From positions 4,898,001-4,962,000 of the forward strand of contig NC_043001.1 of the NCBI RefSeq assembly GCF_006345805.1: a stretch of 64,000 nucleotides of DNA. The letters run 5' to 3'. Position numbers and translations under genes: made by a program. Below are positions 7,890-62,800 of this stretch, piece by piece (the stretch's first letter is position 1; the number at the start of each line of letters is the position of its first letter). The notes under the pieces were generated by a model. The model ran no database searches and was not told the DNA's origin. It saw only the letters and a list, made by a program, of their open reading frames with translations. The DNA is from Octopus sinensis (lineage: Eukaryota).

Positions 7890-7971
7890 TTTTCCTGATG
7901 AGAAGGCAGCATAATGTACCCCTTATTCCTTCAAAATTAGGAATATGCAGCCTTCGAACATATGTCGAAAA
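7890..7971 (+). ncRNA. Type I hammerhead ribozyme motif, one A missing from GAAA
   Basis: TTTTC-CTGATGA-GAAGGC...GCCTTC-GAAC-ATAT-GTC-GAAAA. Stem I TTTTC/GAAAA, stem II GAAGGC/GCCTTC with a long insert, palindromic stem III ACATATGT, GUC site. Confidence 0.7.
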
Positions 7972-8914
7972 TAAAATAAAGGAATTTTGTTAATTCTCGT
8001 TCAACTCCATTCTTTCATTTATATATATATATATATATATATATTATATAGATATCTATATATATATATAATATATATATATGATATATATATAGATATA
8101 TAATTATAATATATTATATATATATATATATATAATATATATGTATATGTAATATATATATATATGTATATGTATATATATACATATATATTTTTTAGTA
8201 ATATATCATTAATATTAATATAAAGAAATTAATATCCAAACTCATCATAAAGATATACCCGTGTGAAAATAGTCATTGTATTAAAATATATAAATAAATA
8301 AATGTAAATATATATAAAAATATATGTAAATATGTATAAGTATAGATATAGTGTATACATATATTTGATAGTTTGAAAGTTTTGAACTAATAATTTAAAG
8401 CATCTCATGATCGTTTCACAGAAGTGTTGTCCCTATAATGAAATCCTATATTGATAAGCTTTTATAGACAACGCTTCTCCTCTTTAGAGATATAAAATAG
8501 GAATATTGTATAAGATATAGTATAATAGTTTTTTTTTAAATTTGAAGTCAAACTGTAAATGTTGTTTGTTTGAAATATAAATAAAAAATTAAAAATTACT
8601 ACTTTTGATGAGAGTCTTTAAATCCATATATACTTCTTGGTTCTTCCTCTGCAGAAGAGTAACCAATGATGTATATATGGATTCACACATTGAATACATT
8701 TAACTAAATATATATATATATATAATATATATATATATATATCTATATGGAAATGTCAAGAAACACAAAATCTGTAATTGCTAAACGTACCCCAGAGTTG
8801 CAGAATAATATATAATTTCTCCCATAATAGGTCAAAGTTTTGTGTTTTTATTAGACGAGGGAATTGTTGGGTGGTTGAAAATCCCGCTTCGGGACACTGT
8901 TGCATTTGTTTCAG

Positions 8915-9240
8915 TCACGCTGCATGGTACTTTTGATGTGTTCCATATAGATCGAGCTTGTTAATACCATGCGAGTGGATTTGCTAGACAGAAGTTGTGT
9001 GGGTTGACCATCGTACTTTTATGTGCTTATGTCTTCAAGTCTTCCTGTGTGTCTTTGCCTCACCACTTCAGAATCGGTGTTGTATCTTTTCCATCATCGT
9101 CAATTATGGGTTCCCGAATAGAACGATAAAATACATAGCAAATTTTGAAATATATATAAAGCGATCGATTTTTCTGAGTAAAACCCTACACGGCGGTGCC
9201 CTGTCGTAGAGTGTTTCCAATTATTGAAACGATTAAACCA
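8915..9240 (+). mobile_element. SINE family B, highly degenerate copy
   Basis: GAGTGGATTTGCTAGACAGAAG...GGCGGTGCCCTG tail remnant. Confidence 0.5.
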
Positions 9241-9726
9241 TAATATATTTAGATTCACTAGCATTGGCTTATTTTATATCAAATTAATCATAACCTGATT
9301 CTTTGACGCAGAATCATGAGTTTACTTTTCAGTTTTTCTCTATGTCATCTCCCATTTTCTTTCTGTAAAGAATTCTCGGAATTTATGAAACATTAATGCT
9401 CCCAAAAGTTATACAATGAAAAAAAAAAAGCGGTTTCTGCTGTTGTGTTTCTTTTACTCTCTTGCTCGATTTTTCCCTTTCTCCCGATCTTACTCACTCC
9501 TCTCACTCTTTCTCTCCTCTCTCCTTACTTCGTTAATTATTTCTCCTACTTTTCCTTTTCAAATGCAATGACTGATTCTGGTGTCTCTTCACACAAGATG
9601 TTTTCCGTATCAAACTTACACAAATTAATTTATGTACATATACAGACTTATTGATGATTATACAACAATAATACTTCTACCAACATCACAACCACAACCA
9701 CCGCTACTACAACTGCTGCTGCAATA

Positions 9727-60927: not shown

Positions 60928-62535
60928 CAGTTGCGGCCAAAATGTTCAGAACGGCACTGTCTTCGTCAGATAAGTAAGTATAAGTTTTTATTAAAGTCCT
61001 TTTGTATTCTATAATTTTCACAGACAATAAATGCAATATTAATTGTTATTGTCTGAGATTTTGGTGTAATTTGAGAGGATAATACAAAAGCTATGGATGA
61101 TTTAGGGATTTACTGCAAAACCCATGGCGGCCAAAATGATCAGAACGGTAGAAAAAATAACAACATAATCAATAATGACAGAGAATACTGGAATTATTTA
61201 ATATTTAGTGTGAAGCCCTTTAGCTTCAATCATACGCTGACATCTTCGACTGCATGGGGAACTTAAATTTTCAATTTCTTGCTGGGTGATCTTATTCCAT
61301 TCTTCCTGAAGGGCATTCCATAATTGCTCAGTTGTTTTAAGATTTCTGGCTTTCGAACGTTCTCCTAGAATATTCCACACATTTTCAATAGTATTGAGAT
61401 CTGTGCTTTGAGCTGGCCAATCCATAACTATAACCTTTTCAGCCTTGAGGAAGTTCATGACCACCTTTGCCTTGTGACTTGGGGCATTGTCCTGCATGAA
61501 TATGGGTGGTCGCTTAGTTGAATTTCTCAGCACGGGCAAGACATGATCTTTTACAAGTTGTTTATAAACTCCTGCATTTAACTTTCAATGTAATCGCACC
61601 AAAGGGCCCACACCATCTCCAGATATCATTCCCCAAACCATGACACTTCCTCCACCGAATGTAACACTAGTTTTAAGGCATTTAGCCGACAATTTTTCAC
61701 CTATTTTTCTACGAACGTACCTTTTCCCATCTGAGCCAAATACCATAAACTTAGATTCATCACTGAAATGCACCGTTTGCCGTTTTTCTTGAGACCACAA
61801 CACATGTTCGGTTGCAAAGGTAAAACGACACTTTTTATTCTTGGAGCTGATCAGTGGCTTAACTGCAGGTGCTCTTGCTTGTAGGTCATGTTCAACTAAA
61901 CGATGAGACACAGTTTTCTAGATAAAGTTTTCTTTAATACAATGCTCATTTTCCAAGAAACAGCAGCAGCAGTTTTAAATCTGTCCTTTTTAACCAACAT
62001 TACCATAGCACGATCTTCTCTCTTGGTCGTTTTTCTTGGCCTACCTGTAAACTATCTTGCTTCACACGAACAACATTCATCGTAGACTTTAAGAATACCG
62101 TGTACAACACTTTTTGACTTATTAACAATCTTTGCAATAGATCCAATACTTAAATTATCCTACCTTCGAAGCTTAATAATCTGCTGACGAATTGGTAACG
62201 GAGTAAGTGGCATTATATTAACAAATTACACTGCAAAGATTCTTACTAATGTTTAGTAAACGAACCGTCACGTAAAAAAATTCAAAACATTAGAGTTCAC
62301 TGGTTAAATATACTAAAACACGGATAAAAAGCAACCGTTCTGATCATTTTGGCCGCCATGGGTTTTGCAGTAAATCACTAAATCATCCATAACCTTTGTA
62401 TTATCCTCTCAAATTACACCAAAATCTCGTATTTATTGTCTGTGAAAATTATAGAATATAAAACAACTTTGATAAAAAGTTATATCTTCTTTTCTGACAA
62501 AAACAATGCCGTTCTGAACATTTTAGCCGCCACTG
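60928..62535 (-). mobile_element. Full-length Tc1-family transposon, IR/DR type, TA target duplication
   Basis: TIRs 60928-61149 and 62334-62535 start CAGT(T/G)GCGGC.AAAATGTTCAGAACGGCA, with an inner direct repeat GGCGGCCAAAATGATCAGAACGG. TA on both flanks. Confidence 0.95.
61198..62213 (-). pseudogene. Tc1 DD34E transposase, disrupted by stops and frameshifts
   Basis: MPLTPLPIRQQIIKLRR*..GRPRKTT.REDR, FSDESKF, GGGSVMVWG, QDNAPSH, WPAQSTDLNTIENVW (34 residues between the second D and the E), C-terminal GLHTKY. Confidence 0.93.
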
Positions 62536-62574
62536 TATGTATATACCTTCAATTAATGAAATTATCGTTCGCAT

Positions 62575-62800
62575 ATCTGTTTCTGTTTCTGTGTGTGTCA
62601 GTATTCGCCATGATAGATCGCTAGCCACTACAAATTCTTTATTTTGTATCCTTGTTTCTTTCTGTGTTCCTTTCTGTGGAAGAGCGTAGGCTCGAAACAT
62701 TAAAGACTATTTCACTTCGCCAGCGTTAAACTAATACGTCTGTTTGTTGTGTACACTACCTATCTTCGTCTTTTCTTTTTTGAATTCACCCCGATATATT
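62575..62800 (+). mobile_element. Family E2 short repeat with a hammerhead-like motif (62670-62705)
   Basis: CTTT-CTGTGGA-AGAGC-GTAG-GCTC-GAAAC-ATT-AAAG; reverse-complement homolog of 26826-27022. Confidence 0.65.

Follow-up and report, generated by a model that had tools for sequence, protein, structure and literature searches.

Why should a single stretch of octopus DNA carry nine hammerhead ribozyme (HHR) motifs, and what has spread them? The window, that is, the whole stretch of DNA analysed here, comprises 64,000 nucleotides (nt) of Octopus sinensis (G000:C5:4898001-4962000) and belongs to a (TA)n-rich genome of 2.72 Gb with 33% GC. A first-pass annotation of these letters had described several short, unrelated repeat families, each with a type I hammerhead, and had proposed a non-autonomous system mobilised by Penelope-like elements (PLEs). 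Here, the nine sites are copies of seven high-copy families. Coding PLEs account for four of them, as leftover 3' ends, and short non-coding elements for the other five. One shared, circle-based PLE route is the likely means of movement for both the coding PLEs (families A, D and C2) and the non-coding units (B, C1, E and F).

Nine hammerhead sites in seven repeat families

All nine motifs are present where they had been reported, with exact spans of 7890-7971(+), 22233-22296(-), 26924-26959(-), 35853-35887(-), 41131-41165(-), 42375-42413(+), 53915-53974(+), 56869-56917(+) and 62670-62705(+); sites 22234, 41130, 42376 and 56872 keep their earlier numbers below. They are minimal type I hammerheads of the PLE type and adjoin (TA)n within high-copy repeats. 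The extra A reported after CUGANGA can be read at eight of the nine sites, 7890 being the exception.

A strict descriptor (CUGANGA, a stem II with 3 bp or more, GAAA, a near-palindromic stem III, UH and a stem I with 3 bp or more) is passed by four of the nine sites (22234, 41130, 42376 and 53915), and an earlier, still stricter one matched 53915 alone. Against the four strict matches in the window, 100 dinucleotide shuffles averaged 0.05 and never reached four, and a blind sample of sixty 10-kb stretches (600 kb) yielded 24 matches versus 0.65 in 20 shuffles. This excess over shuffled sequence, a comparison proposed in the first-pass annotation, rules out a chance origin of the motifs. The palindromic stem III described there was also recovered when palindromy was dropped from the descriptor, namely in 19 of 32 distinct matches versus 0 of 27 in doublet-block shuffles. 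The Rfam models, likewise proposed as a check, matched no hammerhead, neither among the 150 matches listed for the window as a whole nor, at E<=10, across the four strict sites. The features are as follows.

7814..8031 (+): family A, coding PLE of the Hydra type, present as a solo 3' end with (TA)n runs on both sides; hammerhead at 7890-7971; stem III ACAUAUGU
21975..22592 (-): family B, non-coding 564-nt closed unit; hammerhead 22233-22296; stem III ACGGCCGU
26820..26968 (-): family C2, older subfamily, PLE of the Neptune type present as a solo 3' end; the core of hammerhead 26924-26959 reads CUGUCGA (U at position 6, U6)
35751..35930 (-): family C1, decayed copy of a non-coding ~220-nt closed unit; hammerhead 35853-35887
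41029..41237 (-): family C1, full unit with (TA)n at its end; intact hammerhead 41131-41165; stem III ACGU
42320..42557 (+): family D, coding PLE present as a solo 3' end; stem III AUAU in an intact hammerhead at 42375-42413
53798..54204 (+): family E, positions 69-478 of a closed non-coding unit of 478 nt, with (TA)n at the end; stem III AUCGG-U-CCGAU in an intact hammerhead at 53915-53974
56624..56976 (+): family F, non-coding 429-nt closed unit; hammerhead-like 56869-56917 without G12
56977..58691 (+): decayed 5'-truncated coding PLE of another family with reverse transcriptase (RT), zinc linker and GIY-YIG, abutting family F
62600..62781 (+): family C2, subfamily with CUGUGGA, PLE of the Neptune type present as a solo 3' end; hammerhead at 62670-62705 with U6, stem III decayed to ACAU

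Shorter 3' fragments without a ribozyme belong to family E (18420-18558(+)), family C2 (32648-32694(-)) and family C1 (43408-43458(+)).

The count of at least six unrelated families becomes seven, with the restriction that C1 and C2 are related to each other. The label of a non-coding, non-autonomous element fits five sites (22234, 53915, 56872, 35853 and 41130) and fails for the other four, which are 5'-truncated 3' ends of coding PLEs. Searches of the genome with six DNA queries returned at least 869-3241 first-look candidates per query, 40 of which were scored each; the per-family tallies given here come from the best 15-30 fetched copies, with a bias toward well-preserved ones. An intact core was found in 12/15 copies of A, 17/25 of B, 27/30 of C1, 10/15 of D and 13/15 of E, and is the commonest state in five of the seven families. 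Having both this core and the palindromic stem III, A, B, C1, D and E are minimal PLE-type hammerheads of type I. The loss of one A of GAAA at 7890 is decay of a single copy. Site 35853 combines a damaged GAAA with CCGACGA in place of CUGANGA, a word which recurs in four other loci (L262, L263, L267 and L166). The U6 of sites 26924 and 62670 and the missing G12 of 56872 are states of their whole families.

Extrapolated from the 600-kb sample, the genome would hold ~109,000 intact cores (70,000-162,000) and ~63,000 independent insertions (35,000-106,000; 14 counted by hand), these ranges being Poisson only, with clustering ignored. For the window's own families, ~122,000 is obtained (27 homologous regions left once two cross-hits and four related-array units had been taken out). 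A very large genome-wide count, as had been expected if the window were typical, therefore stands at about 10^5 motifs, a sizeable repeat class; the window itself is about three times richer than the blind sample (9 seen versus 2.9 expected), so the count is not ~4x10^5.

Coding Penelope-like families and non-coding closed units

The window copy of family A is 91% identical to the 3' end of a coding locus (L305). Hydra open reading frame (ORF) pieces with a GIY-YIG frame stand upstream of the HHR-bearing arm in 5/15 top copies, one locus (L299) has a 787-aa RT plus GIY-YIG frame ~560 nt ahead of the ribozyme, and the endonuclease has 17,316 candidates in the genome. The Hydra clade is defined by a C-terminal GIY-YIG without CCHH, DKT, an RWK-like motif, CxxC and CxH around E and N, and a (TA)n target (Craig et al., 2021, PMC8557442). 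Read by eye against this definition, the ORFs of L299 and L315 (DKT, RWL, CGIC...E...N...CLH, (TA)n target) assign family A to the Hydra clade by motif. A CxCX5C linker was not found in family A, where the linker is an Asn-rich stretch without cysteines (L299-L301).

Family D is 92% identical to the 3' end of another locus (L124). Here, RT and endonuclease pieces with a C-terminal GIY-YIG and a CxxxxCxxC linker lie upstream (L124, L131), and a common ORF end is found in L122, L125 and L134.

For C2, the parent is a very young element with 6,688 candidates, of which 150 were scored, all with 99-100% protein identity. Its ORF matches Pfam RVT_1 and, weakly, GIY-YIG, and full copies flanked by pseudo-long terminal repeats (pLTRs) carry the C2 motif in both repeats (L241, L242, L244). 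The Neptune clade is defined by DKG, a CX2-5CxxC linker, a C-terminal endonuclease with CCHH and a (TA)n target. PADKGG, CSRPRCRTC and CISCSLC...H...H (P0002) together with the (TA)n end assign the parent to this clade; this name, like the clade of family D, is given by motifs alone. The copy at 26924 is 72% identical over 158 nt to the pLTR of the full-length coding L241, and a coding origin of its subfamily is suggested by this homology, not by an ORF of its own. The copy at 62670 is 74% identical to the same pLTR and 92% identical upstream to L320, where Neptune ORF pieces upstream tie this subfamily to an ORF. Since A, D and C2 run upstream into RT or endonuclease ORFs, they are not non-coding closed units and hence not retrozymes. 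Two tandem C2 pairs (L326, L154), considered as circle products, turned out to be local duplications including their flanks.

The PLE fragment at 56977-58691 was considered as parent of the 56872 motif and rejected, since its relatives share nothing with that segment; no convincing HHR was found in its 3' region. At the junction 56976/56977 the F copy meets the older fragment at a short common GGTA stretch. The fragment differs by 17-20% from its relatives and family F by 7-10%; because these ages differ, a simultaneous chimera is unlikely, and the join is probably secondary, from a later deletion or insertion.

On the contrary, an upstream PLE ORF was found in none of the 84 top copies of B, C1, E and F, in comparison to ~10/30 for A and D. 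Closure is visible as upstream sequence equal to the unit's own 3' end in 14/25 copies of B, 5/15 of E and 9/15 of F. Unit lengths are ~220 nt (C1), 429 nt (F), 478 nt (E), 535 nt (G, a sibling family outside the window described below) and 564 nt (B), and the longest ATG ORF in B, E, F and G is at most 54 aa even when these are read as circles. B, C1, E, F and G are retrozyme-like, being non-coding head-to-tail units of 150-1000 nt with one HHR each. Compared with doublet-block shuffles (30 each), an excess of self-pairing is seen in B (z -4.7), E (-5.5), F (-3.0) and G (-8.5).

The window copy of family B has a direct arm (22508-21975) and an inverted arm (22514-22592) ending in (TA)n. This two-armed form was counted in 12/25 copies, another count of 19 being inflated by an internal palindrome, and no PLE ORF lies upstream in any of the 25. 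Stem III occurs as CGGCCG and as CGUACG, with five copies each. Reading the 22234 element as a miniature inverted-repeat transposable element was rejected, its "terminal repeat" being the variable inverted arm, and a proposed coding partner (L058) proved to be an unrelated old Hydra fragment. A B-related 557-nt unit with stem III CGUACG forms a 98% identical array of at least six units elsewhere (L176:1-3524). Family E is two-armed in 6/15 copies, without a PLE ORF in the 15. The window copy of F consists of an inverted arm (56624-56694) and a direct arm (56725-56976) that is cut short.

C1 has a sharp 5' end with no common upstream sequence among ~40 copies. Genome-wide, eight exact head-to-tail junctions were found versus none in the control, and in a trimer the units share indels and differ by 3-5%, versus 9% between tandem loci. 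Over 90 nt, C1 is 74% identical to the Neptune pLTR.

Insertion ends, arrays and the copied template

Copies have fixed ends: they stop 50-290 nt downstream of the predicted cut, at internal TA-like sites, and are followed by (TA)n. The distances from the cut are ~55 or 210 nt in A, 100 or 130 in the young Neptune-type family, 160 or 287 in G, 208 or 290 in B, 156 or 237 in E and 207 or ~280-290 in F. In two-armed loci, one arm stops at the longer and the other at the shorter of these distances, so that the tail stands on one arm only (11/11 in A, 10/10 in G, 11/12 in B), a feature described for PLEs (PMC8557442); reading the G arrays gives 14/14, two of which have alignments running into TA. 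Partial tandems, inverted truncated arms, tails at one end and the (TA)n target mark these as PLE-mobilised insertions, more weakly in E and F. Because the 3' end lies off the cut, and because copies cross it, a linear monomer copied once is excluded as the template. We infer that the template was a circle, was copied with repeated template jumps or was an uncleaved multimer.

Arrays of family G bear on this choice. This family came from the blind sample (L139:2615-5580, G000:C1:135002615-135005580), and its non-coding HHR unit is 99-100% identical on many contigs (897 candidates). Arrays reach ~11 units, and 14 of 16 are two-armed. Fifteen of the 16 carry one haplotype on all units, with ~12 haplotypes overall, and divergence is 0.45% within versus 1.2% between arrays. 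One haplotype per array points to rolling-circle reverse transcription. This agrees with a model of target-primed copying of circular RNA into tandem cDNA (PMC7229834) and with the circular PLE intermediate proposed by Cervera and de la Pena (2014, PMC4209133). In L253 one variant and in L259 two haplotypes alternate every second unit, and full and shortened junctions take turns along the L259 direct arm, as expected from a heterodimer template; this suggests a dimeric circle. Contigs of four public runs, not recorded as RNA, hold the head-to-tail joint and several of the same variants, so that joint and variants are not peculiar to this assembly. No RNA record is listed for family G. The unit occurs in public runs under three organism codes.

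Could B, C1, E, F and G instead have begun as solo pLTRs of coding PLEs and then been multiplied in place at the DNA level, like satellites? Such a scenario is discussed in a recent preprint (bioRxiv 10.64898/2026.07.22.740005), and the local C2 duplications of L326 and L154 show that copies can multiply together with their flanks. It would, however, predict random array ends, whereas the G arrays have outer ends at two fixed sites inside (TA)n, multi-unit inverted arms and identical arrays on many contigs, and the upstream ORF count of 0/84 versus ~10/30 also speaks against it. This makes local amplification very improbable. Mobilisation of the non-coding units by a long interspersed nuclear element (LINE; CR1, L2 or RTE) would fit the LINE RT fragments in the window and the lack of a PLE partner sequence for B, E, F and G, and LINEs are left open in PMC7229834. 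Nevertheless, the (TA)n target, inverted arms and one-sided tail are common to these units and the coding Hydra family of the same genome, and C1 is homologous to the Neptune pLTR, so that a LINE as mover is extremely improbable. PLE machinery as the mover, as the first-pass annotation had supposed, is likely by these shared hallmarks.

For the shared PLE route, the following steps can be envisaged. Paired minimal hammerheads, acting as dimers via the palindromic stem III, are predicted to cleave a tandem transcript, giving RNA of unit length that would be ligated into circles. A PLE reverse transcriptase may then copy these circles at nicked (TA)n, with target TA pairing to the internal TA-like site of the RNA as primer, and would go on around the circle, stopping before or after a full turn. 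From long coding RNAs, mostly 5'-truncated solo ends would result, and from short circles 1.x-mers or arrays. Long stem III palindromes and tails of 80-130 nt, like those of family A, weakly suggest a Hydra-type enzyme for B, E and G, and the pLTR homology hints, equally weakly, at a Neptune-type enzyme for C1.

The core itself is also unusual. In the young Neptune-type family, CUGUUGA is present in 34 of 35 copies, and the older C2 subfamilies keep U6 with A, C, G or U at position 7 and flanks that differ by ~25%. The sister family C1 has A6. The exact A6 form of the C2 motif has 135 copies genome-wide, spread over all four of these words, and the exact U6 form was found seven times in 1.5 Mb, corresponding to ~12,600 (5,000-26,000). 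These numbers rule out U6 as copy decay. Since the rarity of A6 fits sporadic mutation, U6 appears to be an inherited, conserved state. A natural A6C variant cleaves at <0.1 per minute (PMC3088659), and there is about an even chance that U6 is slow and not dead. A tandem repeat of 187 nt whose core reads CUGUAGA and whose stem III is almost missing (L185:5343-6090 (-)) may be a second U6 family or chance.

A bolder reading, at somewhat less than an even chance, is that a currently active PLE-retrozyme system records in its insertions the rolling-circle copying of monomer and dimer RNA circles, and that the most active coding element of this system uses a conserved U6 core, which four subfamilies with ~10^4 copies have retained and which standard searches for CUGANGA miss. 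If true, the circular PLE intermediate and the role of PLE ribozymes become directly testable.

Several observations weigh against the shared PLE route. G12 is the general base in hammerhead catalysis. In family F, it is present in 0/15 copies, 13/15 have the G12-less form and stem I is poor in the fetched copies, yet head-to-tail copies form; F is probably catalytically dead or folded otherwise, and was nevertheless amplified. The first-pass annotation had named a family consensus lacking the core as evidence against its view, and such a consensus was found for F and, with U6, in part for C2. Family F argues most strongly against an essential role of cleavage, and since U6 Neptune was amplified as well, efficient self-cleavage may be dispensable. 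The short ACGU and AUAU palindromes have almost no predicted duplex energy alone. The one-sided tail is less clean in E (4/6) and F (2-3/4), and no coding partner of B, E, F or G was found among 126 loci with PLE ORF pieces. The C1 unit shows no excess self-pairing (z +0.7 against doublet-block shuffles), some of its eight junctions (seven places) may be nested insertions into TA tails, and its within-pair differences overlap the 2-12% range between solo copies. The 16 G arrays were picked from top matches of a family absent from the window, and polishing could have smoothed them.

The amplification of F and U6 Neptune would also fit a template that is an uncleaved read-through of a tandem locus, or a linear monomer copied with template jumps, with the HHR slow or protein-binding and no circles needed. 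This is in line with Naiad PLEs, which form pLTRs, inversions and tails without hammerheads (PMC8557442), with the weak cleavage of minimal HHRs in vitro (PMC4209133) and with the cleavage of just 1/9 Xenopus dimers (bioRxiv 10.64898/2026.07.22.740005). On the other hand, ~12 haplotypes, each uniform array-wide up to ~11 units, imply a monomer bottleneck per insertion, and core and palindrome have been kept across unrelated families. Copying without circles is therefore considered unlikely, and the circle-based route remains the likely one.

Surroundings of the motifs and comparison with known systems

The remainder of the window holds a tRNA-Asn(GTT) gene or tRNA-derived repeat head (13748-13821(-)), a U6 small nuclear RNA-like fragment under the Rfam gathering score (20697-20747(+)), LINE-type reverse transcriptase fragments (29612-31598(-)) and, by eye, frames like mariner and Tc1 transposase fragments (43733-44155(-), 61198-61584(-)). 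Tandem arrays of dispersed repeats resembling short interspersed nuclear elements, with periods of 182-184 nt and 297 nt, lie at 2659-3086, 49710-50257 and 6158-6899. Elsewhere in the genome, HHR elements of differing families are inserted beside each other's (TA)n ends (L099, L112, L021), and further HHR families absent from the window were seen, some as inverted pairs (L142, L151, L158, L161, L171, L172, L180, L186, L190-L193).

As a class, these elements are already published (2014, 2020 and 2026: PMC4209133, PMC7229834, bioRxiv 10.64898/2026.07.22.740005). What PLE hammerheads do and what moves animal retrozymes are the questions behind this class, and both source papers propose circular intermediates and help from PLEs. 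Because the same genome offers near-identical young coding PLEs, young arrays of non-coding units and natural variants of the core (U6, G12-less), it can be tested cleanly whether cleavage is required. In the available main text of a 2026 octopus repeat annotation, the words ribozyme, hammerhead and retrozyme never occur (PMC13282606).

The minimal hammerheads in the pLTRs of PLEs (PMC4209133; Cervera and de la Pena, 2014) share with those described here CUGANGA with an extra nucleotide, G10.1-C11.1, a palindromic or absent stem III, a short stem I and many unrelated families per genome. They too are mostly solo copies of truncated PLEs in thousands per genome, with molluscan examples listed. 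In contrast, the count obtained here is about ten times their largest (~9,000, Xenopus), and the U6 core, found here beside a G12-less family, is absent from the portion of their alignment compared.

The non-LTR (long terminal repeat) retrozymes were found as circular RNAs in coral, mussel and axolotl (PMC7229834; Cervera and de la Pena, 2020). The 2026 preprint by Li et al., which sampled no mollusc, regards them as non-autonomous PLE derivatives. Like the units of the octopus, they are non-coding, a few hundred nt long and arranged head-to-tail; each has one type I HHR, GC is low and PLEs co-exist with them. Their self-pairing is matched by B, E, F and G, and pLTR homology recurs here in C1; their counts near 10^5 (126,247 in axolotl) are also comparable. 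The validated ones, however, mostly have canonical HHRs and demonstrated circular RNA, whereas the octopus units have the minimal PLE type and are described here at the DNA level. No account of dispersed two-armed (TA)n insertions, of the one-sided tail or of a single haplotype per array is given in the available parts of these reports.

With the Hydra and Neptune clades (Craig et al., 2021, PMC8557442), the octopus families share the C-terminal GIY-YIG, the (TA)n target, partial tandems, the inverted truncated arm and the tail at one end. The supplement of that paper lists an octopus Hydra family with an HHR, although the HHR words of family A were not found in its available part. Family A differs from the published Hydra elements by a tail of ~155 nt versus 30-40 nt and by the missing CxCX5C linker, and the Neptune-type family differs from published Neptune by its U6 core. 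Within the literature searched, the family-wide U6 and G12-less cores, and a rolling-circle signature tied to two-armed, PLE-style insertion, appear to be new.

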